From Naegleria gruberi (lineage: Eukaryota), in NCBI GenBank assembly GCA_000004985.1, contig GG738871.1: a stretch of 64,000 nucleotides of DNA; one strand, written 5' to 3'. Numbering within the stretch: position 1 is the stretch's first letter; every line of letters starts with the position of its first letter. The notes below the pieces were generated by a model. The model was not told the origin of the DNA and made no database searches. It saw nothing but the letters and a program-made list of their open reading frames with translations. Below, piece after piece: positions 4,801-51,146 of the stretch. The position numbers and the translations under genes were made by a program.

Positions 4801-7086
4801 NNNNNNNNNNNNNNNNNNNNNNNNNNNNNNNNNNNNNNNNNNNNNNNNNNNNNNNNNNNNNNNNNNNNNNNNNNNNNNNNNNNNNNNNNNNNNNNNNNNN
4901 NNNNNNNNNNNNNNNNNNNNNNNNNNNNNNNNNNNNNNNNNNNNNNNNNNNNNNNNNNNNNNNNNNNNNNNNNNNNNNNNNNNNNNNNNNNNNNNNNNNN
5001 NNNNNNNNNNNNNNNNNNNNNNNNNNNNNNNNNNNNNNNNNNNNNNNNNNNNNNNNNNNNNNNNNNNNNNNNNNNNNNNNNNNNNNNNNNNNNNNNNNNN
5101 NNNNNNNNNNNNNNNNNNNNNNNNNNNNNNNNNNNNNNNNNNNNNNNNNNNNNNNNNNNNNNNNNNNNNNNNNNNNNNNNNNNNNNNNNNNNNNNNNNNN
5201 NNNNNNNNNNNNNNNNNNNNNNNNNNNNNNNNNNNNNNNNNNNNNNNNNNNNNNNNNNNNNNNNNNNNNNNNNNNNNNNNNNNNNNNNNNNNNNNNNNNN
5301 NNNNNNNNNNNNNNNNNNNNNNNNNNNNNNNNNNNNNNNNNNNNNNNNNNNNNNNNNNNNNNNNNNNNNNNNNNNNNNNNNNNNNNNNNNNNNNNNNNNN
5401 NNNNNNNNNNNNNNNNNNNNNNNNNNNNNNNNNNNNNNNNNNNNNNNNNNNNNNNNNNNNNNNNNNNNNNNNNNNNNNNNNNNNNNNNNNNNNNNNNNNN
5501 NNNNNNNNNNNNNNNNNNNNNNNNNNNNNNNNNNNNNNNNNNNNNNNNNNNNNNNNNNNNNNNNNNNNNNNNNNNNNNNNNNNNNNNNNNNNNNNNNNNN
5601 NNNNNNNNNNNNNNNNNNNNNNNNNNNNNNNNNNNNNNNNNNNNNNNNNNNNNNNNNNNNNNNNNNNNNNNNNNNNNNNNNNNNNNNNNNNNNNNNNNNN
5701 NNNNNNNNNNNNNNNNNNNNNNNNNNNNNNNNNNNNNNNNNNNNNNNNNNNNNNNNNNNNNNNNNNNNNNNNNNNNNNNNNNNNNNNNNNNNNNNNNNNN
5801 NNNNNNNNNNNNNNNNNNNNNNNNNNNNNNNNNNNNNNNNNNNNNNNNNNNNNNNNNNNNNNNNNNNNNNNNNNNNNNNNNNNNNNNNNNNNNNNNNNNN
5901 NNNNNNNNNNNNNNNNNNNNNNNNNNNNNNNNNNNNNNNNNNNNNNNNNNNNNNNNNNNNNNNNNNNNNNNNNNNNNNNNNNNNNNNNNNNNNNNNNNNN
6001 NNNNNNNNNNNNNNNNNNNNNNNNNNNNNNNNNNNNNNNNNNNNNNNNNNNNNNNNNNNNNNNNNNNNNNNNNNNNNNNNNNNNNNNNNNNNNNNNNNNN
6101 NNNNNNNNNNNNNNNNNNNNNNNNNNNNNNNNNNNNNNNNNNNNNNNNNNNNNNNNNNNNNNNNNNNNNNNNNNNNNNNNNNNNNNNNNNNNNNNNNNNN
6201 NNNNNNNNNNNNNNNNNNNNNNNNNNNNNNNNNNNNNNNNNNNNNNNNNNNNNNNNNNNNNNNNNNNNNNNNNNNNNNNNNNNNNNNNNNNNNNNNNNNN
6301 NNNNNNNNNNNNNNNNNNNNNNNNNNNNNNNNNNNNNNNNNNNNNNNNNNNNNNNNNNNNNNNNNNNNNNNNNNNNNNNNNNNNNNNNNNNNNNNNNNNN
6401 NNNNNNNNNNNNNNNNNNNNNNNNNNNNNNNNNNNNNNNNNNNNNNNNNNNNNNNNNNNNNNNNNNNNNNNNNNNNNNNNNNNNNNNNNNNNNNNNNNNN
6501 NNNNNNNNNNNNNNNNNNNNNNNNNNNNNNNNNNNNNNNNNNNNNNNNNNNNNNNNNNNNNNNNNNNNNNNNNNNNNNNNNNNNNNNNNNNNNNNNNNNN
6601 NNNNNNNNNNNNNNNNNNNNNNNNNNNNNNNNNNNNNNNNNNNNNNNNNNNNNNNNNNNNNNNNNNNNNNNNNNNNNNNNNNNNNNNNNNNNNNNNNNNN
6701 NNNNNNNNNNNNNNNNNNNNNNNNNNNNNNNNNNNNNNNNNNNNNNNNNNNNNNNNNNNNNNNNNNNNNNNNNNNNNNNNNNNNNNNNNNNNNNNNNNNN
6801 NNNNNNNNNNNNNNNNNNNNNNNNNNNNNNNNNNNNNNNNNNNNNNNNNNNNNNNNNNNNNNNNNNNNNNNNNNNNNNNNNNNNNNNNNNNNNNNNNNNN
6901 NNNNNNNNNNNNNNNNNNNNNNNNNNNNNNNNNNNNNNNNNNNNNNNNNNNNNNNNNNNNNNNNNNNNNNNNNNNNNNNNNNNNNNNNNNNNNNNNNNNN
7001 NNNNNNNNNNNNNNNNNNNNNNNNNNNNNNNNNNNNNNNNNNNNNNNNNNNNNNNNNNNNNNNNNNNNNNNNNNNNNNNNNNNNNN
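1900..7086. other. Large assembly gap (5187 N) lying inside the NHL-repeat gene
   Basis: Continuous n run. The ORF-track entries 1889..7540(-) and 1892..7102(+) are translations of N and are not real. Confidence 0.99.
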
Positions 7087-9753
7087 CAGTTGGGGAAGCT
7101 AGCAAAGCAAGGTTTGCAACATTATCATCTCCACTAAATCCAAATTTACCTGTTCCAGAAATTGTCTTAATACCTCCCTTAATATTATCAATCATTCTAA
7201 TCCTATTAGTTTCAGATTCCGAAATGACCATCTTGTTGTCTGTAGTTAACAGAATTTTTGTGGGATTTACATTAGCATAAAAGACATTCGATCCATCTGC
7301 AATACCTCCTACAAGTGGTTCCGTTCGACCATTTGATAAAACTAAATTTCCTGCTGTATAAACAAAATATGGCACTTCTGAGCATAAACCAATCGGAGAT
7401 AGTATTTTTTCATGGAAGGATGAAATTACACCTCCATTAATTATACGAATTTTGTTATTAGCAGTATCAGCAATATAAATAGATTGGTCAATGACATATA
7501 CCATACTTGGTAGGAAGAGTTTTGCCTGTGTTGCAACCATACCATCACCATTATATCCTTATTCTCATCAATATTCATTAATGTATTAGAAACTTACCTG
7601 ATTCACCTGTTCCAGCAATGATTTCAACCTTGAAATCATAATAAACACACAATATTCTGTGATTATAAGTATCTAATATAAATTAATGTATCCTAACTAG
7701 TAGGAAAGAGAAACTTACCTGCTACAAAGAGATTATGATTTGAAACAAACAATCCAAATGGTGAATTCAATTGAGTTTCTTTAGGATTATTGGGAACAAG
7801 GCTAGATCCAGTAATTCCATTTCCTAACACTGTACTAATAGTTCCATTGAAAAAAGATCTGACTCTATGATTGAAAGAATCTGAAATGTATAAAATTTCA
7901 GAATCATAGAATACATATTTTGGTAAGTTGAGATGAGTTTCTAATGGATTCAATCCGTCTCCATTAAATCCATTAGTACCACTTCCAACAATTGTGGTTA
8001 TTGTTCCATTAGGAAATATCATTCTAATTCTGTGGTTTCCACTGTCAGCAATGTAAATATTACCAGAATTCTTATCAAAATGAACTGAATGAGGTTTGTT
8101 TAATTGAGCATTAATTGCCAAACCTCCATCACCAGAAAATCCCTGAAATCCAATACCAGCAATAACCTCTACCATTTCGTTTGAGGTATATTTGAGAATT
8201 CTATGATTATCAGTATCCGCAATATAAATCGTAGAAAATGAATCGAGACAGAATATTCCTGTTGGATTTTTCAAAATTATTGAGGACGGAGGACCTTTCT
8301 TTCTTAATCTATCACCAGTAATGGAACCAGCATATAAACAACCGTTTCCTTTAGATACATCTATTTTTTGAATCATTTTAGTTGATGAAACGTATAAATC
8401 AGAATTTCTGAGTTGTAATGCATTGGGAATGAATTTTGAACGGATAAAACTCTCATTAGTCTCTTCAGAAGAATTCCAACATGAAACATTTGAAAATTTG
8501 TCTATTAATGGAATGGTAGACACAGTTCCAGTTGTCAAATCCACTTTCTTTAAATTAAATCCAAAATTAGAATCAGCAATTAATAGTTCATTACTTGATT
8601 GATTGAACGCAATAGCAGCTATTGAATCAAACACTCTATTTTGCACATTAGTACCATCAATAATAGCTCCATTAATATTTAAAATTGGATAAACTTGTTT
8701 AAGGGACAAATCAGCTTTCATTATAGCTTGTGCATGAAAAATATGATTTGGTGAGAAAAAAGTTGGTGATACAATAGATGAATCGAACAACAAAATGGTC
8801 GAAATATTCCCAGTAGTTTGATTAATCACTTTCCAATATCCTAAATTTGAAAGATAAATTGAATCGTCAATAGGAGAAACTGCAAATCCATACACAAAAT
8901 TAAGTTTAGCATCCAAAGCAGGTCCATCATTGGTATTTCCATCAAATTTTCTCCCTTGAATGACAGTCATCCACCATGTTTGTAAATTAATCTTGAATAT
9001 TGAGAATAAATCACATCCATACAAGTATCCCTTGTGATATCTTATATTCGAAATATAAGTTGAAAACATTGTTTCGTTTGAAAAGCCATCTTTCTTGGTT
9101 AGTGTAAATCCATCTCGCAAACTCATAAACTTAATAATTCCGTTTAAATCAACTCTATATAGGTTTGATTCATCACAAATATACAAGTTTCCAATAGGAT
9201 CCCTAGAAATTGAACCAATTTTGGTAAAAATGGTATTCGAAAGTGCTGAACCTTCCTGAATGGTAGTGGAAGTTCCTAACTGCTTGGAAAGAAGAATTAA
9301 ATTTCCATTTTGAAATTTGTAGATCTGCTTGTTGGTAGCAATATAAATAGTGTCGTATGAAGTTTCGTCCACATGAAAACTAGTAATGGTGAGATAAACG
9401 GTAGTTGCACTATTGATATCACCAGTAGAAACCGAATTCTCGGTCATACAACCAGAATAACAACCAACCAATAATTTTCGATCACCAGAAGTTTGATTAA
9501 ATTTAAAAATACGAAAAGAAGATTCCTGAAAATAAATAATTTCTGGCTGATTTTCGGATTGGTATGCATTGGCAAAAGCTGTTGAAAATTTGCCTACACC
9601 ACTGATAGGTTCCCATCTATACGCAACCAGTTTCGAATAACCAAGCTGAACAAACAAGAATAAACTCAGCAAAATGAGCAGACGCATTTTTCTTTTGATT
9701 CCAATACACATATGATTGATGACTTTAGTGCACCATTTAAAGTTTCTGATCAT
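7087..9753 (-). CDS. Secreted NHL-repeat protein, 5' part of a gene whose 3' part is lost in the N gap. Exons (minus strand): 9753 (or Met at 9687)..7719, 7672..7598, 7557..<=7087. Introns are 46 nt (7718..7673) and 40 nt (7597..7558)
   Basis: 686-aa ORF with a signal-peptide-like MRLLILLSLFLFVQLGYS after an internal Met. Repeated NHL consensus, e.g. YIADTDNHRILKY, VIAGIGFQGFSGDGGLA, YIADSGNHRIRMI. Exon joins are chosen so the NHL repeat reads through: ...NLFVAG|DTYNHRIL... and ...IIAGTGESG|YNGDGMVATQAKL.... Donors are CAG|GTAAGT and acceptors ATTAG| and ATAAG|. Confidence 0.75.
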
Positions 9754-10563
9754 TACATTTGAAAATTAATCTAACAATAAATTTACATTGATTGTAATGT
9801 TGTGGAGGCTTGAAAAATGAAAAGGTTTGTAGATGGAGAAAATTCACATCATCAACACATGAACTACACAGTTGTCGGTGGTAAATATAATGGTAGAGAA
9901 TAATATAATAAACATATTATGAATTGTTGTTTTATTATATTGTTTGAAACTTACGGTGCATAGCGTGAAATATCGGAACTTGGTAAATTGACAACATGAC
10001 GAAAATCTGATAATAAATATGATGTTTATTATCTATTTAAATAGTAGTACTAAAAGACATGATTCAAGTTGGTGAAGTACATGCTTAGTTATGATCCATG
10101 TTATTTTTGTTTTTCAAAATTCACATGTACCTATCCCTATCATAACTTGACCAAAATTGATTAGAGAAAGTTCTCCTACCTACTATTGACCATTCCGAAC
10201 AATACTACATTGACAGTTTTCCAACTTGTCCAGTAGATCCGGCAGTAATGATGAATTTAGTGAAAACATTTCATCAAAATTACATTACTAAAAATTAATT
10301 TCCACAAATACTATTATTATATTGATGGAAAACAATAATGACGATGGTTGGTGAATGATCCGATGATGGAACACCAAATTGTGAATTTCCATCATGAAAA
10401 ATAAATTCCAATTTCATGATGATAATTCACCAATAAAAATTACTATTATTACTATTATATAGATCATGTTGAGATGATGATGTGAAAGTTTGGTGGTTTC
10501 ATGATGTAAACCACTCCGAAATCATCATATCCTCCTGAGTAGAAGAATGTTTTTTTTATGAAA

Positions 10564-21622: not shown

Positions 21623-21696
21623 GCCGTCATAGCTCAGTTGGATAGAGCACAGGACTTCTAATCCTGGGGTCGTGGGTTCGAGCCCCATTGTCGGTA
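21623..21696 (+). tRNA. tRNA-Arg(UCU): tRNA-Arg (anticodon UCU)
   Basis: Cloverleaf read by hand: acceptor GCCGTCA/TGTCGGT (one U-U mismatch), D arm GCTC-AGTTGGATA-GAGC, anticodon stem CAGGA/TCCTG with loop CTTCTAA, T arm GTGGG-TTCGAGC-CCCAT. Followed by a T-run (atttttaatttt) as a Pol III terminator. Confidence 0.8.
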
Positions 21697-22146
21697 TCTG
21701 ATTTTTAATTTTCAGATAAAGCAGTGCGGTTTTTAAGATTATATTGTTTAAGATTAAAGTTTTACAATTTTATTTCAAATTCAGTTCTAAATGATATGAG
21801 TAGCCGGAAAAGATCATGTTACTCGTGCTATGTCTCCACTCGCAAATATAATCCGAAAACGAATAGCATCACCGAAGTGTACACCTTAATCTCTATCAAA
21901 CTTAATGTTCCTTTAGGTCAAGGAATTTATGTTTATGGTGTTTCATAGGGAAGTAGTGTAAGTTTTTTATGAATCTTAGAGATTGATGAGATATTTAGAA
22001 TTAACTGGAAGACAAAACATGTAAAAGCTGTTGTATTGGTCAACACTCATTGAATCTATGGCAATGATTTCTTCACATTTGGTTTAAATTATGTAGCTCA
22101 GCAATTACTGCAAATTTGTGGAGATGTTAAAAGCTCGAGGAGATGA

Positions 22147-23089
22147 TTGATTNCCTTAAAAAACTTGGTGAACAACACTCTCTCATTCTCCTTGCCCAGA
22201 TTATACCAAATTATTCAACTATTTATCAAACTAAAAATATATTTGGTTTCTTTTTGGCTTCAGACAGCACCAGAATTCATCATTCACAGAATTAACAGAT
22301 GTAATACTCAAATTGATGTCCCAATCTTCCAAGCAACTTTTGATAAATTCTATGGAGCTAAGCCATCATCCAACTCTGAAGGATACTCACCATTGATGGA
22401 TTCAGATCATATCAAGATGAACATTGCCCATTCAGAACTTTGGGATTCAAGTGTAACAATTGAAACTTTAGATTCCCTCCTTGAAAATGCTGTTGCTACA
22501 ATGGGATCCACTCACGATTTCGTTACAATATATAATATTACAAATTGGGATCGTTACACAGTTGATCCAAAGAAAGGATTTTAGGAATATTAAAGGAAAT
22601 AGTAAGGGAGGATTGATTTTGGTTGAATTTTCTCCTCATGCAACCATGATGAATTCAGCCCAAAGTGGAAGTCCATATCCATGTGGAATGGAATTATTGG
22701 CAAATTTCATTACAATGGAGAATTCAGATATTGACAAAATGGACAAATCATGCCTTTCTCGATTGAATTTTTCATTTAAAGGCCAAAATGTTTCAAATCT
22801 TCAACTAATGGGAACTGAAGATATTTATGATGGTAAACTTCCAGTTCCAACCCCTGAAAAATCAGCTCTTGTTGAAGAATCACTATAAAATGAATCATCT
22901 GTGGTAACAATGAGTAAGGTTGGATTTGGGGTTCTCATTGGTATTCTTAGTTTGGTTATTATCTTATTGGGATTAATGCTTGTAGTTGTTTGTGTGAAGG
23001 GAATGCTTAAGAAACAAAAATCAATTAAGAATGAATCAATTAAACAACCACTTGAGTCAACACATTACATTAGAAAAACACCAAACTAA
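22147..23089 (+). pseudogene. Fragmented ORFs (22147..22584 frame 1; 22472..22888 and 22901..23089 frame 2) that together look like one type I membrane protein: ectodomain, a TM helix (VLIGILSLVIILLGLMLVVVC), and a basic tail. The frameshift has no canonical intron, and there is an ambiguous base at 22153
   Basis: Three consecutive same-strand ORFs with frame changes. No GTAAGT/GTATGT donor in the overlap. n at 22153. No recognisable domain. Confidence 0.3.
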
Positions 23090-23241
23090 TTATTCACTTA
23101 CTTGTTCCTCTTAGGAATAATTAAATATCAAGAAAGATTGACACTAATTCTTACTACCCACAACAAATTAACAGTATGTGCCATGTAGCAAGTGAACTAA
23201 ATGATATTAAAATATTGAAATCAAAAGTTAACTGATTTTAT

Positions 23242-24180
<939 letters not shown>

Positions 24181-25113
24181 TTAGAAAATTGTTGTATTTT
24201 TTTTGTTGGAGAAAAGCCTGAACAGCTGATGAGTTTTTAAATAGATTTTACAAGTTTATTTTTAGAATTGGAACACTTTAAGATTACTTTGTGTACAAGA
24301 GATTTTGTGTTACTTTACAATAACACGTAATGATGGAAAGGAAAATCTTCCTCTTGCCAATACAACTCAAAAGGAAGAGAAGGAAAAATCAAGGAATGGA
24401 AATTTGAAATTCCAATATCGGAATTTATTAATATCGAGAATACAATGTAAATACAACCATCAAATGTATTAACTATTTCATGAGGAATTTCTCATCCATC
24501 ATAAATAAGTTTACATTCATTATCATCTTTACAAAGAAGTGATGATGGATTTTGAATCGTAAGCTAACTTTCTTGATGACGGATAACAATCTATTTGGAT
24601 ATTGTCTATTCAATTTTAATTTGTAATACTGTTGAGAAATGTTTATTTCTAAATTGAATTATCTGTTATTCAACATGAACAGGAAGCAATTCAATTTCAA
24701 TAATTAATACCATCTCCACCTTCAGCAATTTTCTCCACAAAACAATTTCTCGAATTTTACTCGAGAATTGGACGTGATTAAGGGTTCAACACTACAACTT
24801 CAATGTGAAAAGCAATCTTTCACGTAGTCATATTAGTTTCTCATTCTCAGTCATCTCTTGTCTTTCAGTTGTAACCAATTTTATATCTACTCTTTTTCAG
24901 ATGGCAATGATTGCCAGCTATTACCACATGTGGATTACTACATTCTGATTCCTCTCGCTTGTACTTTACTCACCTTCTTCATGGCCACAATTCTTGCAGT
25001 GGACACAATTGGATTGGGTTCAAGGGAAAGGCAAGTGTGACCACCACTACAAACACAACCACTCATGCTACTCCAAGTATTGCTATTGCTCACAGTTGCA
25101 ATTGTTCAGCCAA

Positions 25114-25163
25114 NNNNNNNNNNNNNNNNNNNNNNNNNNNNNNNNNNNNNNNNNNNNNNNNNN
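25114..25163. other. Assembly gap (50 N) that truncates a 5S rRNA gene
   Basis: Run of 50 n. Confidence 0.99.
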
Positions 25164-25253
25164 TCTCCAACCTCAGTACTGATGTGGCTCGACGATGCTT
25201 AACTTCTCAAATCGGACGGGATGAGGTGCATTCATCGTGATATGGCCGTAGCC
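25164..25253 (-). rRNA. 5S rRNA gene, copy 1. The 5' 90 nt are present; the 3' roughly 28 nt are lost in the adjacent gap
   Basis: Identical over 90 nt to the complete copy at 28525..28642. Confidence 0.85.
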
Positions 25254-25541
25254 ATTAAATACCTTAAAACTCTAATGATAAACAGCCAATCTGTCTTTAA
25301 CCAGAATAGACAATTAACAATGTTGGACAAACTCATAATGGATTGTAAATGATACCTTACCACAAACAAAGTATTGAATACAGCAATTGTTTCGAAACTT
25401 TGAATTTTGCTGTATTACTCCTTAGTAAATTGATGCAGCTTTCTTTCCTGTTTCCTCACTCCTCTGCAAGATGATGAGAATTTTATCAATTTCTTTCCAA
25501 TTCATAAATTGTCTGAGATATTATTTCAATTGTTAATTTTG

Positions 25542-25602
25542 GACGGGAAGCCTGCCAGGAATATGGCGACTATCCCGCTACAGTCTTTGACTGTATGAAC
25601 AG
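25542..25602. promoter_or_regulatory. Conserved element B, copy 1 (gacgggaagcctgccaggaatatggcgacTatcccgct plus the hairpin acagtctttgactgt), about 289 bp upstream of the 5' end of 5S copy 1
   Basis: 38-nt core is near-identical to 28926..28963. Same distance and orientation relative to the 5S gene. Intervening spacer is unrelated. Confidence 0.5.
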
Positions 25603-26350
25603 TGAAGGCAACTAATCTATTGATTGTTGGTTCAGTAAGTTATTGTTTAGAAAAACTTGCAACGTGACCATATTTTTATCACCTTTGAATTTTATCTATT
25701 TAGAAAGGGAAACTTGTGGTTGATCAATAAACCTTCAAATTTCGAATTTGAGTCTTCAAATATATTGTATCGTATTGAACTTCGATGATTTACCAACAAC
25801 CTTACCTGGTATTATGTAATTCCAATACAATGCAATGAATTTTGTTATCTTGCTTGATGATCATTGAATTGTGAAACCTGATTAATACACAATCTACAGA
25901 ATTGTGAATTGGTATTTCCGTATCATTTCTCTAGTTAATTTTATTTTCTATTAATTGAAAAAAAGTTTAAAAGGTACCAATCTGCAAGTTCACAAATCCC
26001 CCATTCACAAACCATGGCTGGTAAGGAATGCGGCAATCATAGCTTCATCTTGGTTAACCTCAAAGGTCAGATTGACTCAAAAAAGTCGAGTTTATGTATT
26101 CCTACAGAAAAGATCCTGTAGAAGTACAGTCAATGGTTTTATCAAGAAAGCTTTCTGAGGTTTGTGATATTGGCTTTGAATGTGTGACAAGTGCGATTTA
26201 GGAAAGTTTGAACCCAACCACACACAAAACGTGATTTAGTCCCTTTTTGACCAGATCGGAATTCACAACGTGATTAAAATAAACTTAAAATTAGCAACAC
26301 AACTATTTGCCTTCAGAATAAAAGAAAAAGAAACCAACAACAATTGAAAC

Positions 26351-28315
26351 ATGCTGCCTGCCAAAATATCAAAAAAGTCATCAAGGAAACCAAGAATTGC
26401 CATTCCACCCTGTGCCATGCTGATGGATCCAGACGGATGGGCAAGATTTGCAACCGATCTGACTGTAACTGCAACCATCGCACGTGGCAACAAGAAGGGA
26501 AGAGCGAACATGCTTGCTCAACTACAGATGAAACAAGCAATGGACAAATTGAAAATGAAACAGTTATTGGAAAGTACATTGGGATGTGCAGATATTGTGC
26601 TGGAAATCATGTCAAACTATAGTGATGAGGAATTCCTTGCTGAATTGATGAAGTATTTGATTAATTTTCCTGATTTGGTAAATAGAGAAGCTTGCTTGCA
26701 AATTCTCATGCACAGAAGAGTTTGGTGTTGTAACAATAATAGTCAATTAGAATTTTTACATGGTTGGTTGGAAAATGAGCCAATTATTCATGACACTGAA
26801 TGTGTTGTGAGATTTTCAAAATATTCACTTAAATTCATGTCCACAATTGAAAAGTTTAGTACAGTTACCTTAAATGGTATCTCAATTACAAAGAGACAAT
26901 TGGTTGACTTGATGAATGCAAGTACCAGTAAGATCCAACATTTAAAATTCAACAACTTTCGGCTCCTCAACCCAGAATCTCGATTCTCAAAAAGAATTTT
27001 TAGAATTACACCTTATTTGAAAAAGTTGACATTTGACTTTGAATTGCCATTCATTAGAACCTTGACAAATGAAGGGAAAGCTAAGGAAATTGATAACCCA
27101 ATATTTACACTTGTCAATAATCTTGATTTGATTTCTTCCAATATTGAAGAATTATCATTCTCAAATATAATTTACGACAATAGTGATTTCTCACTTATTT
27201 CACATTTAGGTAACAAGTTGACTCGATTATTATTTACAACACCACCAAATAATTATGACATTTCCACCATTGCTCCCAATCTTGAATATTATGAGAGTCA
27301 CAAGTTTCCAGACAGATCCATCACAATTCCAACTCTCTGTGTTTCACATCCAAGTCAAGAAAACCTCTTAAATCATTCAAGTGAAAAGGTCAGGAAATTG
27401 ATCCTTCGTAACACTGTTAGTTCATGTAAAGAATTGAGATCCTTTTTGAATGATGTATTGGGGAAATGTTATCCTAATTGTGAAGAATTGATTATTCCAG
27501 AAACATTCTTGCAATCATTGTCCAAGGAAGATTTGAAGGGACCAGAAATTGTGTGTTCATTGAAGAGAATCATTGTTAAGCATTCTAGCTCCACGCAACC
27601 ATCCAAATATGGTGCACTCAAGCTTGCTTTATCCTTTTTCTTTCCTTCAAATACAGTATTCCTATTCGAAACCATTCAAAAAGAGGATAATTTTGGAACC
27701 CTTCTTTCCAGTAACAGATCTATCAAAGTTGACTGCTATGAAGATGTGCTCTTCAAAAGAATTGAAAGCACCGAAAGACATTTCAAAGTATTGGACAACT
27801 CTCTCATTACCAAACAAATCAGAAAGATTAAGAAGAAATTCATTAAATGCATCATTTCTAATAATTTTTCAAAATTCCAACGCATTAATGAATCATTGGA
27901 CATTTTGGAAGGATTGAAACGTAACAAACAACTCATGCTCCATACCATCCATCAAGCTATAGAAAATTATCATGACATATTTGACAATGATTCATTATTC
28001 ATGTCAATTAGTGAAAAGTTTGACAAGTGCATGTCAATTCTTGAAGATGAATACATTAGTGAACTTGACTTTGCCCAATGCTACAATAAATTGGAACTTC
28101 TCTTCCACCAAATGATTAAGGTAATTGAGGAGAATGGCTATCCCACAAAAGTCCTCTTCAATGAACAATGGTTCAATGAGCAAATTGTTGAGATTTATGG
28201 TTTTCAATCGGATGAAGTTCAGGTCTATGAAGATTCACAAGAAGAAATGGAGCAGGCAAGTTATGATTTAATGCAAATGGATGAAGTAAATATTGACATG
28301 GAAGATGTTGTGTAG
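26351..28315 (+). CDS. Hypothetical protein (654 aa) with a basic N-terminus and F-box/LRR-like (FBXL-type) irregular leucine-rich repeats
   Basis: ATG at 26351. Single uninterrupted ORF. L-x-x-L-x-L/N-x-x-I-periodicity segments (LKFNNFRLLNPESRFSKRIFRITPYLKKLTFDFELPFIRTL...). No stronger domain call possible. Confidence 0.55.
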   Translation: MLPAKISKKSSRKPRIAIPPCAMLMDPDGWARFATDLTVTATIARGNKKGRANMLAQLQMKQAMDKLKMKQLLESTLGCADIVLEIMSNYSDEEFLAELMKYLINFPDLVNREACLQILMHRRVWCCNNNSQLEFLHGWLENEPIIHDTECVVRFSKYSLKFMSTIEKFSTVTLNGISITKRQLVDLMNASTSKIQHLKFNNFRLLNPESRFSKRIFRITPYLKKLTFDFELPFIRTLTNEGKAKEIDNPIFTLVNNLDLISSNIEELSFSNIIYDNSDFSLISHLGNKLTRLLFTTPPNNYDISTIAPNLEYYESHKFPDRSITIPTLCVSHPSQENLLNHSSEKVRKLILRNTVSSCKELRSFLNDVLGKCYPNCEELIIPETFLQSLSKEDLKGPEIVCSLKRIIVKHSSSTQPSKYGALKLALSFFFPSNTVFLFETIQKEDNFGTLLSSNRSIKVDCYEDVLFKRIESTERHFKVLDNSLITKQIRKIKKKFIKCIISNNFSKFQRINESLDILEGLKRNKQLMLHTIHQAIENYHDIFDNDSLFMSISEKFDKCMSILEDEYISELDFAQCYNKLELLFHQMIKVIEENGYPTKVLFNEQWFNEQIVEIYGFQSDEVQVYEDSQEEMEQASYDLMQMDEVNIDMEDVV

Positions 28316-28524
28316 ATGTGTCTATTCACTTTGCAATGTTGCTTTAGCATTGCGAATATTCAACATTTAATACAAATATATTTTCTTAAAGTATTGTGAA
28401 AATAAAAAAAGTTTATTGAATGGTAAGTTGTTTGTATACATGAATCAATTTGAATCTTGTAATGAAAATGTCTCTAAATAGAAAATAAAAGAATATTGTT
28501 AACATTTCTTAGTAAAAGGAAAAA

Positions 28525-28642
28525 GACTACAGCACCACAGGTTCCCAAGTTGTCTCCAACCTCAGTACTGATGTGGCTCGACGATGCTTAACTTCTCAAA
28601 TCGGACGGGATGAGGTGCATTCATCGTGATATGGCCGTAGCC
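28525..28642 (-). rRNA. 5S rRNA gene, copy 2, complete (about 118 nt)
   Basis: Minus-strand reading: GGCTACGGCCATATCACGATGAATGCACCTCATCCCGTCCGATTTGAGAAGTTAAGCATCGTCGAGCCACATCAGTACTGAGGTTGGAGACAACTTGGGAACCTGTGGTGCTGTAGTC. Helix-I pairing 5' GGCUACGGC with 3' GCUGUAGUC. Conserved CCGUCCGAU / AGUACU / GGGAAC / GGUGCUGUAG blocks of eukaryotic 5S. Followed by TTTTTCCTTTT as a Pol III terminator. Confidence 0.9.
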
Positions 28643-28925
28643 ATTCACTACCTTAATACATTGACTATAAAGAATATTGCAAATCTAAGCAATGTTACAC
28701 AGATTATAGAATTGACTTAGTTTTCGTATTAGATACTTTCAATAATCGTATTAATGTGGGGTGAAAGAAATAACATTTGAATGGAAGAATACTCAACAAT
28801 TTTTATCTAATTTCGTTAATTATTGCATGAAAGAAATACTATGAAGGTCAACTGTTCCCACATTAACAAATGACATTGAAGGTCGACTGTTTGAATTTAA
28901 AAATGCTTATTCAATTTACAATTAA

Positions 28926-28979
28926 GACGGGAAGCCTGCCAGGAATATGGCGACAATCCCGCTGTTCATACAGTCAAAG
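28926..28979. promoter_or_regulatory. Conserved element B, copy 2, about 284 bp upstream of the 5' end of 5S copy 2. The hairpin segment is inverted relative to copy 1
   Basis: gacgggaagcctgccaggaatatggcgacAatcccgct, then gttcatacagtcaaag, which is the reverse complement of the acagtctttgactgtatgaac seen in copy 1. Confidence 0.5.
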
Positions 28980-29637
28980 AATCTTGTTGGTTCAGGTTTT
29001 GTTTGAAGAAATTGAAAAGGTTGATTAACCTCATATTTATTGAACATTTGTCATGTTAAATTGCTTGATGCAAATTTTGGTTTCTCTTATTCTGATCAAT
29101 TCGAAATTGAAACTTCATCTATTTCAAAACAAATTAGTTTATTTATACTGAATTATTTACAAGTTGTAATTTACATCTTTTTCGATTTGGTAATCTTCTT
29201 ATTTGTGGTGTTTGATTGTTGTTTAGCTCTCTTTTCAATTGAATTTTTCGAAGATCTTTTCACAGAAATTTGTTTACCATTTAAATTTGCATGGTGATAA
29301 TCAATATTATTACGATGTCTAGTTCCACTTATAATATTTGAAGTATCAATAAAAGATAAATCAATTGGTTTAGATCTTGACCAAACTGTTTTTGTTGGAA
29401 TTCTATCTTCGGAAGATGAAGAATTTGATGAAGTATTTTACTAAATGTTTTGTTGTGGAAATATCATCATCCTACAATTATCTATTTATTTCCATGGTGA
29501 TTTCCACTAATTTTGTGATTCCAATTTTTGTAGGATTTTCCACTCATCACAAGAATTTGAATTTTTCTATTAATATTTTGATGAAGGAAATTTAATGAAA
29601 ATCAAACAAAAGAAAATAACAAAACAACAATAAGAAA

Positions 29638-29853
29638 ATGGTCTCAACAAGAAGAAATATGTTTAATTCCTCCAATAATACTTCACAATTTAATTCCGAA
29701 ATTTCTCTGGATAATATTATTGGTGGTACAAGAAGAAGAAATTTAATTGATTACAAAACATTGAATTCTATTGGAAGTGAAACAAGTAAAACTTCCAAAT
29801 CTCAATCACATAATACTTTAGAAATGAGAAACAAACAATTCAAAATGTGGTAA
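29638..29853 (+). CDS. Small basic Ser/Asn-rich ORF (71 aa). It has a diverged inverted paralogous segment at about 29190..29440 on the minus strand
   Basis: ATG ORF. Protein-level similarity between DNIIGGTRRRNLIDYKTLNSIG (+) and SNIISGTRHRNNIDYHHANLNGK (-). Similar C-termini, ...KQFKMW versus ...KSKKM. Confidence 0.3.
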   Translation: MVSTRRNMFNSSNNTSQFNSEISLDNIIGGTRRRNLIDYKTLNSIGSETSKTSKSQSHNTLEMRNKQFKMW

Positions 29854-30214
29854 TCTCCATTTAACTTTAAATTTTGTAAACCTAGGCAATCATTGTAAAT
29901 AAACCCAAAATGTAAATATTCAATAATGTACAGTAGAATTTTTTCTTTATTTTCTACTGAATTTCTGATTCAATTCAGATCAACATAAATTTCAATGTAA
30001 TTATGTCAATTCTGTGTTTTCTTCATGTTCATCTATATCAAAGAAGTCAAAAGCAGGATGCTTACTACTGTCTTGTTTTGTAATTTAAATATTTCGTTTG
30101 TTGCACATTACATTTATGAATGTAAGGAAATGAATGCATAAAAAGTAATTTTCAAATATTTGAATGCAAAATTTTTAAAAAGTCTTACAAAATTGTGATG
30201 GCTCGCCACGTTTA

Positions 30215-30285
30215 CCGTCTCGGGAGGAATCGAACCTCCGTCAATGGATTCAAAGTCCACTATGCTACCATTACACCACGAGACG
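30215..30285 (-). tRNA. tRNA-Gln(UUG): tRNA-Gln (anticodon UUG)
   Basis: Minus-strand sequence CGTCTCG-TG-GTGT-AATGGTA-GCAT-A-GTGGA-CTTTGAA-TCCAT-TGAC-GGAGG-TTCGATT-CCTCC-CGAGACG-G. Block-for-block similarity to canonical eukaryotic tRNA-Gln (TGGTGTAATGGT, GGACTTTGAATCC). Perfect 7-bp acceptor stem but an unusual C1:G72 pair. Confidence 0.75.
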
Positions 30286-31041
30286 AGCACATAAATTATG
30301 AACAATCTAACTACATGAACGATTCTGCTTTTGATACGTATCCTGCAAATGAAGCTTGATGAAAATCACCAATTAAACTTGTTGTACATTGGATACATTC
30401 CACATTTCCCTTGTGGTCACAATAATGAATTTGTAATAAATAAATATAATAAATTAATAATATATTATGAATTATTAGGTAATAGAAAAATCTCTTCTCC
30501 CAAGAAGAATGATGAAGTAAATAGAGTGATTGCTCCAAGAAGTACAACTTCTCCATAAGGAAGAAATCTTGCTTCGGTAACTTGTTTGCCTGTAAATAAT
30601 TTGAATAAAATCTTGTACTCTTTCTGTTATTAACAATATTCCAAGTATTGGTGTTTTCATCAAAGAGGAATGTTGCCATCAAGAGCAAGAAGAAGGAAAT
30701 TGTCTATTTTCGTTCAAGAAACCTTCCTCATTGCGCACTTGTACATTGTTGAGTATCACAGTACTTCACAACATAACAATTACAACAACATCAGCATTCA
30801 ACAAGAATATATCATCACAGAAAGAGAAAGAAAAATCCAATTTCAAGAGTTCTCAACAACAACAACAGATTGTCGTCCATACATCCTTTGCATAATTGAT
30901 TGGAGGCATTTTTCAGCCAAGAATTTTCTTGTTATCATCAAAGGGACAAAATTTTCATTGTAAATAACGCTGCGTCATACGTAATTTGTTTGCAAAAAAA
31001 TACAACAAGTTTCTGCAGGTACCATCAACCTTCTCATCACA

Positions 31042-31557
31042 ATGTCTGCCGTAGAACAACAATCAACTCAACAACAAGAATCCACCAAGAAGACTGGTAA
31101 GGATAAGTACAAGTTTGAAGTCAATCAAGCTAAGCTTGCCCAACTCAAGAAGATGTCCAAGGATGTCGTCATTGCTGGTGGTATGCGTAGAAAGCACAAG
31201 GTTGTCAAAGCCAGTTCTCAAAATGAAAGTAAAATAAGAAACATTGTTAACAAGTGGAGAATGACCACCATTCCAGAAGTTATGGAAGTCTCAATGGTCA
31301 TGGAAGACAACACCATCACCACATTGACTCAACCAAAGGTTGAAGCTGCTGTCCACTCCAACTCATTCGTCATTGCTGGTAAATACCAAAGAATGACCTA
31401 TGAAGAATACTTCCCAACTATGCTCAAGCAATTGTCTAACAATTTGGATCCTAACCAATTACAACAACTCTTGGCCGGTTTGAGCCAAAAGGAAGAAAAG
31501 ACAGCTGCTACTCAAGAAGAATTGCCAGTTGTTGAATCTTTCGAAACTGTCCAATAA
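31042..31557 (+). CDS. BTF3: Nascent polypeptide-associated complex subunit beta / BTF3 (171 aa)
   Basis: ATG at 31042. NAC domain: QAKLAQLKKMSKDVVIAGGMRRKHKVVKASS...IPEVMEVSMVMEDNTITTLTQPKVEAAVHSNSFVIAGKYQRMTYEEYFPTMLKQL matches the BTF3 consensus ([25 protein letters not shown]...[37 protein letters not shown]). Confidence 0.85.
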   Translation: MSAVEQQSTQQQESTKKTGKDKYKFEVNQAKLAQLKKMSKDVVIAGGMRRKHKVVKASSQNESKIRNIVNKWRMTTIPEVMEVSMVMEDNTITTLTQPKVEAAVHSNSFVIAGKYQRMTYEEYFPTMLKQLSNNLDPNQLQQLLAGLSQKEEKTAATQEELPVVESFETVQ

Positions 31558-32060
31558 ATTATTTAAAAAATTTAAATTTTCAATCATTCCGATATTCTTT
31601 TCAACATGAAAGTTGGTTTAATGATATTAAGCCATGTTGGTGCCTCTTGATTAGCGACCAATATTAAATAAAAATTATTTTAAAAAAATATCAATATTTA
31701 TTAACAATGATGAACAACAGCTGGTGCGAACTAAAGTAGCTTGGAACCTTGATATCGATTAGGAATAATGTTATTTTCATATTGAAGTTCATTATCGGAA
31801 TGAAATTATTTAATTGGATTCCTTGGTGGGCGCCTTTAACAGTTGTTGGTACTTCTCCTACTATTTAAACTGCTTGCAACAATTCTTCGTTCTGTGTGGA
31901 CTAGAAATAATAATTATGATTTACTTGTTGCAAAGGCTAAATTGAAATCAACAACAATAAACCTTTCCATTCTTTTCAATACGTACTGTTAATCATCATT
32001 AATTTGATGGAGAATCTCTAAAGATGAACTTGGAATGATTACAATAGTAAAATCAAAAAA

Positions 32061-32576
32061 ATGTCATCATTAAAAGAAGGACATCTTTCCAACGATTCTT
32101 TACATCTCATCGTTACTAATTGTCAAGAACCAAAACATAATTCATTCAGAACTACACTACAAAAGAAAGAAGGTGATGAAGTTTTTAAATGCGAAATTGA
32201 TGAAAGTACTGATCAACAAACTTACTCAGTGACTGCCCTGTTGTATTTACATAATGATGGAACATTTGATTATTCTTTGGATGGATATTCTGCTAATGAT
32301 GAAATGGGTTCTACAATTACAAATTCATTCTTTGGGGTGTGGAATCTAGTGGACAATTCTCTAACTCTTACTCCCGTCTACAAACACAAATATCTGAGTG
32401 AAGGTTGGGAATTGATAGACAACAAATATATTGAAATGCATACAGTGAATACCAATAATTATGATGGCAATTCTATTTTGGCATGGAATCCAAGTAACTA
32501 CACAGACACTATTACCTGTTTTTTATATAAGGATAAGAAAGAAGTTGCCACTTTCAAAAAGTTCAGTCAACCATAA
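32061..32576 (+). CDS. Hypothetical protein (171 aa)
   Basis: ATG ORF with coding-like composition. No recognisable domain. Confidence 0.45.
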   Translation: MSSLKEGHLSNDSLHLIVTNCQEPKHNSFRTTLQKKEGDEVFKCEIDESTDQQTYSVTALLYLHNDGTFDYSLDGYSANDEMGSTITNSFFGVWNLVDNSLTLTPVYKHKYLSEGWELIDNKYIEMHTVNTNNYDGNSILAWNPSNYTDTITCFLYKDKKEVATFKKFSQP

Positions 32577-32621
32577 CTCTCAATATCCAAGTGCCTAAAA
32601 GTGGATTAACAAAACTGAAAT

Positions 32622-32694
32622 CGCCCACCGTGGGGGTCGAACCCACGACCACAAGGTTAAGAGCCTTGCGCTCTACCGACTGAGCTAGACGGGC
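32622..32694 (-). tRNA. tRNA-Lys(CUU): tRNA-Lys (anticodon CUU)
   Basis: Minus-strand GCCCGTC-TA-GCTC-AGTCGGT-AGAGC-G-CAAGG-CTCTTAA-CCTTG-TGGTC-GTGGG-TTCGACC-CCCAC-GGTGGGC-G. Canonical cloverleaf with A/B boxes. T-run downstream. Confidence 0.88.
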
Positions 32695-49834: not shown

Positions 49835-51146
49835 TATTTGTTTGCAAGGAATGGAATATCTTACTGAATTGAAACAATCAACCATGTGAATCATCTAATA
49901 TTTGAATTTCTGTTGTTATTAGAGCGAGGAAACACACTAGGTACTTCCTCACGTATCAAAAATTTTGAAGGAGGGCAATAGCCAATGGCAATTGACCATA
50001 TACAGGACAGCTTTTCAGAGTGCAAGGAAAAGCGTCGACTGCATAACTTTCCAACCTTCTTGATCATTGGAAAGTCCTTCAAGGTAAGTATGAAGATTTA
50101 AGAGAGGCAAAGTGGGAATATATTTGAAGGCATTTTAATCTACAATTTTGAAATAAAAATTATGGTAGTAATTTTTAATTAAAAAGCCATTCGATATCAT
50201 TGGGCAAGTTATTTGCTCATCTTCAGTCTCAATCCAAAAATTATGATTAAGTATTGGATTAACATGATTAAGCAACTCAGAAAGAGTGTAAACAAATAAT
50301 GAATCAAAAAGCTTATTTATTTTCTTTCCATCACATGATCATTAATTTACTAATAATTAACAATCAAAACACAAACATTCATAATGATCGCCATCATCAT
50401 CAAATTAATATTTTACATTAAAGCTAGTAGACCGAGTTGATTCAACCGGTTGGGTATTAAACAAGGAGATTTGATCCTTGTCGTGATGTTTTCTCTCAAC
50501 TGGTTGATCATCCGAAGGTTGACAAATTTCTCCCTTGATGGTTCTTCCTACTCCACTGAAGGGTTTGAAAGGATGTTGTTGTTGAGGTTCTGAAGAATCA
50601 TTAGAAGAAGAGGAAGGAGGAGAGTGATGCTCCGGATCATCGAAAGGATGCCTATTCATATTCTCTCTTCAATAGATGATATATTTGTTTTATTAGAAAT
50701 GATTATTATTGGAGGGAGAAGAGTTTGTAATTTAATAATTTGGGAAAATAGCTTGTTATGTTCAATAGATGAAATTTCAATTTACAAGAATGGTATGTTT
50801 CTTTAATTGTAATTCTCGTCAACATGCTATCTATTCGAAAGTGGTAAATATTAATTGTGCTTAGTACTCAATTTTAAAAGTGGTAACACCTTACCCCGCC
50901 GCGGGTATTAGTTCACTAATTACTTGTGAAATTCGTCAATATCTTTGTGATGGGGACCTTAAAAGAAAGGTTGTTAACTTTTGTATTGTGGTCTGTGGGT
51001 AAATTGACGAGACAGGTATGGACAGGTTGCCAAATTTACAACCAGCATGAAAGGATAATAGAAGAGGTTGAAACACTTAATTTTCATACCAACAGAAAAA
51101 AACAAATCCATTCGAAACATATTTCATCACTCTCTCGGATACTACT

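Follow-up and report, generated by a model that had tools for sequence, protein, structure and literature searches.

A pair of dispersed 5S rRNA genes bracketing a protein-coding gene on scaffold_27 of Naegleria gruberi

Introduction

Two 5S rRNA-like sequences that lie on one strand with a protein-coding gene between them raise a simple question: are they genuine 5S genes, and if so, do they belong to a scattered family, to the remains of a tandem array, or to a more local event? We examined such a pair in a window of 64,000 nucleotides, the whole stretch of DNA that was analysed, which corresponds to scaffold_27:1-64000 (JGI) of Naegleria gruberi (Heterolobosea, Discoba).

The rRNA genes of this organism have been described in two parts. 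Feng et al. 2012 (PLoS One; PMC3369914, Table S1) catalogued 279 N. gruberi 5S copies and gave their organization as 'located with rDNA units: N' and 'tandem arrangement: Y'. In PMC5805870, the Naegleria 18S, 5.8S, and 28S genes are placed, one copy each and with no 5S, on a 14-kb circular plasmid (CERE) that is present as ∼3,000 to 5,000 circles (Clark & Cross 1987, as cited there). The original prediction for this locus took an rDNA palindrome as its point of reference, which is not the form described for the large rRNA genes of N. gruberi in PMC5805870.

Results

Identity of the two 5S genes

Both elements are genuine 5S rRNA genes of N. gruberi, already catalogued in 2012 (Table 1). A cmscan of the 64-kb window at the gathering threshold (38 bits for RF00001) gave exactly two RF00001 matches, both above the threshold and both on the minus strand, as had been predicted. 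Copy 2 scored 105.4 bits (E = 4.4e-22, model positions 1 to 120) and copy 1 scored 52.7 bits (match at 25168-25253, E = 3.8e-08). The N-run list, the ORF, and the repeats also bear out the earlier description of a gap-cut copy 1 and a complete copy 2 in direct orientation around a plus-strand gene, and the strings it quoted, AGTACTGAGGTTGGAGACAAC and GGTGCTGTAG, are present in copy 2. The two copies are direct repeats with a start-to-start spacing of 3389 bp, and they are identical at 90/90 positions, up to the first N. No further 5S genes or 5S relics were found in a whole-window scan at E <= 0.5, and when a 43-nt 5S probe was allowed up to 3 mismatches, copies 1 and 2 were its only matches in the window (0 expected in shuffles).

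The minimum free energy structure of copy 2 folds into the three arms of a 5S rRNA (-41.5 kcal/mol; z, -2.6). All 9 pairs of helix I form, and an alignment of copy 2 with 7 other 5S sequences (8 in total) has compensatory changes in 20/39 pairs. In the internal control region of copy 2, box A is exact at nt 50 to 64 and box C is found at nt 80 to 97 with 2 mismatches. A T5 run (TCTTTTTCC) at the 3' end is followed by a second run, T4. RNA polymerase III terminates in T runs, and the T5 run is thus expected to be the Pol III terminator of copy 2; that of copy 1 would lie inside the gap. In the catalogue of Feng et al. (PMC3369914, Table S1), copy 1 is R32403 (scaffold_27:25164-25250) and copy 2 is R33518 (scaffold_27:28523-28639); the BLAST-set gene ends given there fall 3 nt inside the 5' end that helix I pairing backs.

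Table 1. Features in and around the interval between the two 5S rRNA genes (window coordinates)
Feature	Position	Strand	Remarks
tRNA-Arg	21623-21696	+	
Scaffold gap, 50 N	25114-25163		N-run list and sequence; directly abuts copy 1
5S rRNA copy 1	25164-25253	-	5' 90 nt present; 3' 29 nt inside gap
Promoter-proximal region, copy 1	25254-25282	-	TTAAGGTATTTAAT at -14..-1; TTTAT at -29..-25
Diverged block 1	25525-25763		homologous to and colinear with block 2
38-mer copy 1	25542-25579		GACGGGAAGCCTGCCAGGAATATGGCGACTATCCCGCT (plus-strand letters); 289 nt upstream of copy 1 start
U3 snoRNA-like sequence	25975-26133	-	in the copy 1-ORF interval, on the 5S strand; subthreshold
Protein-coding gene	26351-28315	+	single exon, single open frame, 654 aa; bracketed by both 5S genes
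T5 run	28520-28524	-	at/after the 3' end of copy 2
5S rRNA copy 2	28524-28642	-	complete, 119 nt
Promoter-proximal region, copy 2	28643-28671	-	TTAAGGTAGTGAAT at -14..-1; TTTAT (TATA-like) at -29..-25
Diverged block 2	28910-29122		upstream of copy 2; partner of block 1
38-mer copy 2	28926-28963		37/38 identical to copy 1; 284 nt upstream of copy 2 start
tRNA-Gln(TTG)	30214-30286	-	ARAGORN and Rfam; 1571 nt upstream of copy 2, on the 5S strand
tRNA-Lys	32622-32694	-	

Copy 1 and the assembly gap

Copy 1 runs down to the first base past the N run. The 29 nt missing from its 3' end would read CAACTTGGGAACCTGTGGTGCTGTAGTCT, and beyond the gap the sequence is unrelated. In the real genome copy 1 is probably a complete gene whose 3' 29 nt fall in the gap, a loss that may well stem from the difficulty of assembling 5S repeats so alike. 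The original prediction had suggested that 5S copies are assembly-breaking repeats, and this is plausible, with 40 catalogued copies on 39 small scaffolds and some of them cut at scaffold ends (for instance, scaffold_594:1-86 in Table S1).

Genes between and around the copies

The 654-aa ORF is 100% identical to an NCBI entry, 'predicted protein [Naegleria gruberi]' (P0001), and has a 91% paralog (P0002) and a 56% homolog in another heterolobosean assembly (P0003); a Pfam search with it returned nothing significant. The gene is convergent with copy 2, and 208 nt separate its stop codon from the 3' end of that 5S gene. The window begins with a (CCCAAA)n array, which matches the reported candidate N. 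gruberi telomere repeat, TTTGGG, and the 5S pair is ∼25 to 29 kb from this telomeric start of scaffold_27. A NAC gene elsewhere in the window has its closest relatives in Naegleria fowleri and Willaertia. The genes for tRNA-Gln, tRNA-Lys, and tRNA-Arg make up a local group of Pol III genes with the 5S genes.

The earlier reading had missed a U3-like sequence in the interval, as well as the sequence that the two loci share beyond the 5S gene itself. The U3 family was tested under Rfam clan CL00100, for which boxes A'/A and C'/B/C/D are expected. Against RF01848 (ACEA_U3), whose gathering threshold is 55 bits, the sequence scored 37.7 bits (E = 1.3e-5 when 1.1 kb was scanned and 7.6e-4 for the whole window) and thus fell short of it. 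By eye, its 5' end (UUGACUGUACUUCUACAGGAUCUUUUCUGUAGGAAU) is a convincing likeness of boxes A'/A. The sequence is short (159 nt in total), its terminal stem ACCAA/UUGGU flanks AGAUGA and CAGA, and the box D position reads CAGA, not CUGA.

Upstream regions

The flanks of the two 5S genes are unrelated except for positions -1 to -29 and one diverged block further upstream. The motif at -14 to -1, TTAAGGTAnTnAAT, was considered as a general promoter element and rejected: it is absent from the Willaertia copies and from L009, the only Naegleria-like contig (118/119 identical) among the 19 metagenome contigs that matched a 24-mer of the 5S gene. The other contigs carried 5S of unrelated eukaryotes, and an exact scan with a 35-mer had no match. 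Because of this absence, a shared ancestry of the two loci is the likelier source of the motif, as judged from the sequences compared. A TATA box and an internal control region have been reported for N. gruberi 5S genes, and Feng et al. found no TFIIIA in N. gruberi (PMC3369914), which makes the classical type-1 promoter mechanism no more than a candidate for these genes.

The shared block, ∼240 bp long, starts ∼270 nt upstream of each 5S gene, stands in register with the 5S genes, and contains a 38-nt core. In blastn, the two blocks align at 87% over 55 nt (E = 5e-12) and at 65% over 151 nt (E = 2.6e-4); in addition, a 19-nt piece at 25584-25602 is inverted in the other block at 28962-28980 (19/19). 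Between this block and the promoter-proximal region, no similarity of locus 1 to locus 2 was found across ∼240 nt. Neither L009 nor the upstream regions of the three tRNA genes contain the block, and there were no Rfam matches in 28643-30214.

The 38-mer occurs only twice in the window at up to 3 mismatches (0 expected) and is predicted to fold into a hairpin on either strand. Two identities were tried for it and dropped. As a 5S relic it shares GCCATAT and TCCCGTCC with the 5S gene, and the Infernal 5S model had no match at E <= 5. As a coding exon it has a minus-strand frame that is open in both copies (ending SGIVAIFLAGFPS before the stop) with indels in multiples of 3, and no protein among 5.8 billion sequences shares even three 5-residue words with it.

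Arrangement of 5S genes in the genome

Two copies alone are weak grounds for calling a gene family dispersed, and the original prediction to that effect is right only through the genome-wide table. In our reanalysis of Table S1, the 279 copies are spread over 117 scaffolds; no two lie closer than 363 bp, only 2 intervals are below 1 kb, and the median same-scaffold spacing is 33.8 kb. The catalogue was drawn from a draft Sanger assembly, which could have collapsed true tandem arrays or stranded them on small scaffolds. No head-to-tail 5S arrays are present in these coordinates, so the 'tandem' label of Feng et al. is not borne out by their own data. Intervals shorter than 5 kb number 33, where copies placed at random on 41 Mb would give ∼9 (P∼1e-9). 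Loose pairs 1 to 5 kb apart are thus in significant excess, copies 1 and 2 being one such pair; the catalogue mentions neither this excess nor the shared upstream block.

That the 5S genes lie off the large-rRNA replicon, as had also been predicted, agrees with the 'located with rDNA units: N' entry and with the window itself, where Rfam found no SSU or LSU rRNA match, including in the scan at E <= 0.5. With the 18S, 5.8S, and 28S genes on the circular plasmid, the 5S genes are therefore unlinked to them. At the locus itself, the 3389-bp interval is unique sequence with a conserved gene, unlike the spacer of a tandem array. The organization is that of dispersed, nontandem, rDNA-unlinked 5S genes.

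Willaertia magna and N. fowleri

At the NAC locus of Willaertia magna (GCA_041937235.1, JBEGDK010000058.1; here L023), a stretch of 6 kb holds three 5S genes on one strand, with a tRNA and protein-coding genes among them, and one of the three is degenerate. The nearest is 317 bp upstream of the NAC gene and divergent from it; N. gruberi copy 2 is 2.4 kb upstream of NAC and also divergent. The 5S sequences of the two species are identical at 99/119 positions, with compensatory helix changes. In contrast, the intervening genes are not homologous, and W. magna has no 38-mer. The 654-aa ORF was considered as an ortholog of the F-box-like gene between Willaertia 5S copies and rejected (BLASTP E = 0.74). 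The syntenic N. fowleri interval contains no 5S. The loose 5S style of W. magna supports the interspersed organization seen in N. gruberi.

Discussion

We regard it as very probable that the pair consists of ordinary chromosomal N. gruberi 5S genes, drawn from a scattered, rDNA-unlinked family of ∼279 copies; an old local duplication is the most likely origin of the pair itself. On this explanation, the near-identical copies of the family would sit singly or in loose groups among protein-coding genes. Each is most likely transcribed by RNA polymerase III, to judge from the sequence elements, with the internal box A/box C-type region, the TATA-like sequence near -27, and T5 termination as the likely signals. 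The duplicated unit was probably at least 0.6 kb, comprising the 5S gene and ∼510 bp upstream, and it would since have diverged, with the 5S gene, the ∼30 bases just upstream, and the 38-nt core as the parts that stayed alike. We hold this origin with moderate confidence. An old duplication is suggested because the upstream homology is colinear and in register, and because the -14 to -1 motif is common to these copies and not to those of L009 or Willaertia; the origin stays uncertain because ∼240 nt are without similarity and no second copy of the ORF stands beside copy 2. Alternatively, the block found at both loci may be a dispersed element in its own right.

Several other readings of the locus have to be weighed against this one. 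The original prediction had called the 5S sequence close to the dictyostelid type, which would make this a dictyostelid with 5S dispersed instead of on an rDNA palindrome. A likeness of the 5S 3' half and a GC content of ∼33%, compatible with some dictyostelids, speak for it, but we give it next to no credence: the ORF product matches an N. gruberi protein at 100% identity, the 5S coordinates are those of N. gruberi scaffold_27, the NAC relatives are N. fowleri and Willaertia, and the telomere is of the TTTGGG type. That the assembler collapsed a tandem 5S array, so that the dispersal is an artifact, would fit the gap abutting copy 1, the 'tandem arrangement: Y' entry (PMC3369914), and the many 5S copies on tiny scaffolds. 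We consider it very unlikely, since 3.3 kb of unique sequence with a conserved protein-coding gene splits the copies, their flanks differ, the closest catalogued pair is 363 bp apart, and the same interspersed pattern appears in the independent Willaertia assembly. Copy 1 might also be a truly truncated pseudogene with only the 5' 90 nt rather than an intact gene cut by the gap; some 18 Table S1 entries fall outside 112 to 120 nt, and a degenerate 5S is known in the relative Willaertia (L023:7592-7694, 103 nt, 41.9 bits). Against this, copy 1 matches the intact copy 2 right to the first N and retains its promoter-proximal sequence, and the unrelated sequence across the gap is what reads ending within a repeat would leave, all of which makes truncation improbable.

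The shared upstream block invites two further readings. Ty1/Ty3 and Dictyostelium TRE elements insert upstream of Pol III genes, and the 5S genes might have been spread or targeted by a mobile element, the block and 38-nt hairpin being a transposon or solo-LTR remnant, or the 5S gene and block having been retroposed together. The block does lie at equal distance and in equal orientation upstream of both 5S genes, pairs 1 to 5 kb apart are in excess genome-wide, and 5S positions vary by species, with none in the syntenic interval of N. fowleri and none around the homolog of the 654-aa ORF in L001. Yet no reverse-transcriptase or transposase ORF, poly-A tail, or target-site duplication was seen around either unit; the 64 kb hold just two copies of the block, which is missing from the tRNA upstream regions and L009; and, unlike retropseudogenes, the 5S copies are of full length and carry an upstream promoter of their own. 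A mobile origin therefore seems improbable to us, about as much so as truncation of copy 1. Somewhat less remote, though still doubtful, is that the 38-nt core in its ∼240-bp block is a functional 5S-linked element (a distal Pol III control or a small RNA), with local duplication or targeting producing the excess of pairs 1 to 5 kb apart and so the '5S-gene-5S' brackets. The old local duplication of ordinary 5S genes remains our preferred account.

Dispersed 5S families are found in other eukaryotes, such as Schizosaccharomyces pombe, Neurospora crassa, and Acanthamoeba castellanii. In these organisms, many near-identical 5S genes are scattered with their own flanks amid Pol II genes, unlinked to the 35S/45S rDNA, and carry an upstream TATA-like element together with internal ones, as in N. 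gruberi. N. gruberi differs in its higher copy number (∼279), its excess of pairs (1 to 5 kb) and triplets, and its large rRNA genes on a circle. Dictyostelium discoideum is likewise a protist with extrachromosomal large-rRNA genes, and some of its 5S strings look similar, but it belongs to another supergroup. Its 5S gene lies on the extrachromosomal rDNA palindrome, whereas N. gruberi has its 5S genes dispersed over the chromosomes and a circle as its rDNA replicon. Within Naegleria, the CERE is the other half of the rRNA gene system, described without 5S in PMC5805870, and the 5S genes are the chromosomal half.

Both loci are already known from the catalogue of a dispersed 5S family, and by themselves they mean little. 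The points that are new here are minor: the shared upstream block with its 38-mer, the subthreshold U3-like sequence, and the loose 5S cluster of Willaertia. For N. gruberi, the published 'tandem' label does not fit the published 5S coordinates, and the common claim that Naegleria has no chromosomal rRNA genes overlooks ∼279 5S genes. If the 38-nt element or the 1- to 5-kb excess were functional, it would bear on how dispersed Pol III families spread and sustain their identity and on how the cell keeps its 5S output in step with rDNA that plasmids carry in thousands of copies.

Identification and structure of the 5S rRNA genes

An Rfam scan of the entire window (RF00001, gathering thresholds) identified 5S_rRNA matches at two minus-strand sites, as the original prediction had it. 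5S-2 is complete at 119 nt. 5S-1 remains visible as far as 25164, the first base past a run of 50 Ns, and the cut by the gap that had been predicted leaves 90 nt; all 90 aligned positions are identical to 5S-2, and the 3′ 29 nt are absent. 5S-1 is probably whole in the real genome and shortened only by the assembly. The genes lie in direct orientation 3,389 bp apart (start to start, predicted as ∼3.4 kb) around the plus-strand gene ORF654. They were the sole matches in the window to a 43-nt probe with up to 3 mismatches (0 expected by chance), and a permissive scan of the whole window (E ≤ 0.5) found no other 5S gene or 5S relic. All the factual points of the original prediction are thus borne out.

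The two ends of 5S-2 form all nine pairs of helix I, and the minimum-free-energy structure of the gene has the canonical three-arm 5S shape (−41.5 kcal/mol; z, −2.6). In an alignment of 5S-2 to seven further 5S genes (a Naegleria-like metagenome copy, Willaertia magna, and five unrelated eukaryotes), pairing was retained through changes on both sides at 20 of 39 predicted pairs. Both sequences carry the full 5S rRNA signature in sequence and structure.

Features of the 5S region in the window and 5S genes at the Willaertia magna NAC locus (JBEGDK010000058.1)
Feature	Position	Strand	Remarks
tRNA-Arg	21623-21696	+	
Polyubiquitin gene	23242-24159	-	4 head-to-tail ubiquitin repeats, 305 aa; 228-bp tandem repeats, 74-88% DNA identity
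Region without long ORF	between polyubiquitin gene and gap		954 bp
50-N gap	25114-25163		adjoins 5S-1
5S-1	25168-25253 (Rfam match)	-	52.7 bits
Interval	between 5S-1 and ORF654		1097 bp, holding U3-like sequence
ORF654	26351-28315	+	654 codons, one open frame
Spacer	between ORF654 and 5S-2		208 bp; 5S-2 (-) convergent with ORF654 (+)
5S-2	28524-28642	-	Rfam 105.4 bits, E 4.4e-22, model 1-120
Spacer	between 5S-2 and tRNA-Gln		1571 bp
tRNA-Gln	30214-30286	-	
NAC gene	31042-31557	+	NAC-domain protein
tRNA-Lys	32622-32694	-	
W. magna 5S	3570-3688		
W. magna degenerate 5S	7592-7694		103 nt
W. magna 5S	9566-9684		

Genomic setting

The original prediction was right on gene identity and dispersed organization and wrong on the taxon. 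Its dictyostelid attribution fails because of the protein matches, the scaffold coordinates, and a telomere-type repeat. Along its full length, ORF654 is 100% identical to the NCBI entry "predicted protein [Naegleria gruberi]" (a 91% paralog lies on a different N. gruberi contig), and the closest named relatives of the NAC protein are from Naegleria fowleri (72%) and Willaertia magna (70%). In the 2012 5S catalogue of Feng et al. (PMC3369914, Table S1), rows R32403 (scaffold_27 25164-25250) and R33518 (scaffold_27 28523-28639) coincide with the window coordinates of 5S-1 and 5S-2; therefore, the window is JGI Naegr1 scaffold_27:1-64000. It starts with ∼390 bp of (CCCAAA)n (1-395), the beginning of scaffold_27, and TTTGGG is a candidate N. 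gruberi telomere repeat (PMC3622300), which puts ∼25 to 29 kb between the 5S pair and an assembled chromosome end. At ∼1690-1710, just ahead of a 5,187-N gap (1900-7086), is a short CCCAAACCCAAACCCAA relic.

The window has five clear Pol III genes (tRNA-Arg, both 5S genes, tRNA-Gln, and tRNA-Lys), and they all fall inside 11 kb (21623-32694), four of them on the minus strand. A U1 snRNA gene at 49924-50091(-) scored barely above the Rfam threshold (70.4 versus 69.5 bits).

Genome-wide arrangement of 5S genes

We reanalyzed the 279 catalogue entries, which are spread over 117 scaffolds. The 162 intervals between same-scaffold neighbors have a minimum of 363 bp and a median of 33.8 kb, two are below 1 kb, and the coordinates contain no head-to-tail arrays. 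The predicted dispersed, nontandem organization thus holds, refined by a tendency of copies to form loose groups about one gene apart. Intervals below 5 kb number 33 (31 of them at 1 to 5 kb), against ∼9 expected under random placement on a 41-Mb genome (PMC10161547); the excess has a Poisson P of ∼1e-9, and the maximum in 5,000 simulations was 21. The window pair, with 3,272 bp between catalogue hits, is one of roughly thirty loose pairs or triplets. In Table 1 of the same paper, the arrangement in N. gruberi is given as "tandem: Y," which is at odds with its own coordinates in Table S1.

The suggestion that 5S copies break assemblies is plausible. It fits that 40 copies sit on 39 small scaffolds, some of them cut at scaffold ends (e.g., scaffold_594:1-86 and scaffold_975:9-125); in the window, however, just one of four gaps of at least 50 N touches a 5S gene.

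The prediction also placed 5S genes away from an rDNA palindrome. They are indeed off the rDNA replicon, which in Naegleria is a circle with no palindrome: PMC5805870 places the 18S, 5.8S, and 28S genes on a ∼14-kb circular element present in 3,000 to 5,000 copies, and Feng et al. score N. gruberi 5S as not located with rDNA units (PMC3369914). No 5S gene is mentioned in the sequence reports on the element (PMC5805870 and abstracts of related reports). Papers on this rDNA plasmid describe nuclear DNA as lacking rRNA genes (PMC5805870), a statement that overlooks the 5S family.

Transcription signals and origin of the pair

5S-2 contains an exact match to box A at nt 50 to 64 (consensus as used by Feng et al.) and box C at nt 80 to 97 with two mismatches. 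Its 3′ end reads into TCTTTTTCCTTTT, a T5 and then a T4 run, as would be expected of a Pol III terminator. Upstream, 5S-1 and 5S-2 have in common TTTAT at −29 to −25 and TTAAGGTAnTnAAT at −14 to −1. The latter motif is confined to these two copies in comparison with those of W. magna and L009, a 1,964-bp metagenome contig, and fits common descent of the pair better than a general promoter signal. The sole upstream feature in common with L009 and W. magna is a TATA-like A/T box at roughly −30 to −20, in agreement with the TATA box reported for N. gruberi 5S genes by Feng et al., who did not find TFIIIA in this species (PMC3369914). Each 5S copy would be a Pol III transcription unit of its own, and selection and/or gene conversion may keep the copies identical.

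A repeat search revealed a 38-mer, 37/38 identical, at 25542-25579 and 28926-28963, 284 to 289 nt upstream of each gene. Its copies are 3,384 bp apart, in register with the 5S genes; the window holds no third copy (0 expected by chance). Around the 38-mer, sensitive blastn revealed a diverged block, colinear between the loci (25525-25763 versus 28910-29122), that comprises 55 nt at 87% (E, 5e-12), a 19-nt segment exactly inverted between copies, and 151 nt at 65% (E, 2.6e-4). The ∼240 nt separating this block from the promoter-proximal 30 nt have no similarity between the loci.

Folding predicts a hairpin in the 38-mer on either strand, and it matched no Rfam family. It is not present in L009, the W. 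magna and N. fowleri loci, or L001 (a contig from run ERR1598038). It has GCCATAT and TCCCGTCC in common with 5S, yet as a 5S relic it went undetected by the 5S model. A minus-strand frame is open across the region in both copies, with three indels, all multiples of three; a coding exon is not supported, as no database protein contained even three 5-residue words of the peptide. On the simplest reading, an old duplication spanning 0.6 kb or more gave rise to both loci, and the 38-mer has been retained under some constraint. We infer, with moderate confidence, that the pair formed via local duplication.

Comparison with relatives

The L009 contig (36% GC) carries a 5S gene 118/119 identical to that of the window, flanked by unrelated coding sequences. 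The W. magna NAC locus (3570-10498) echoes the N. gruberi layout: three same-strand 5S genes with a tRNA-Ser among them are grouped in a stretch of under 6 kb immediately upstream of NAC, the nearest at a distance of 317 bp. Those that are intact match the N. gruberi gene at 99/119 positions, and changes in helices are paired. Only 5S and NAC are clearly common to this locus and the window (tblastx), and the gene between the W. magna 5S copies has no homology to ORF654. That 5S adjoins NAC in two genera may reflect either ancestry or coincidence.

The corresponding interval of N. fowleri is syntenic, with both the beta-helix/EGF gene and NAC, and has neither a 5S nor a tRNA gene within 10 kb. 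In the Logan assembly of ERR1598038, L001 (10001-13195) encodes an ORF654 homolog (56%) directly beside an actin-family gene, and no 5S is found on this contig. The window counterpart of the actin-family gene lies at ∼36.8 to 37.6 kb, ∼9 kb from ORF654 and in the opposite orientation, which indicates local rearrangement. Across these comparisons, 5S positions therefore turn over between species.

Metagenome contigs from unrelated eukaryotes held dense snRNA/5S gene clusters: U1, U5, SRP RNA, U2, U6, U4, and 5S inside 1.7 kb (L020, 321-1998); 5S, U3, U6, and U5 together (L018); and 5S adjoining U6 (L002 and L004).

A U3-like sequence and remaining leads

The sequence at 25975-26133(-) scored 37.7 bits against ACEA_U3 (gathering threshold, 55), with E values of 1.3e-5 in a 1.1-kb search and 7.6e-4 in the whole window. 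Its first 38 nt closely resemble U3 boxes A′/A, a terminal stem brackets AGAUGA and CAGA, and downstream come T4 and T7 runs. It is short, with an internal T6 run and a noncanonical D box, and is a candidate that may represent either a short U3 gene or a U3 pseudogene.

Both 5S genes, the size of their family, and its separation from rDNA have already been published; what remains as minor leads is the 38-nt element upstream of the genes, the surplus of 1- to 5-kb pairs, and the U3-like sequence.
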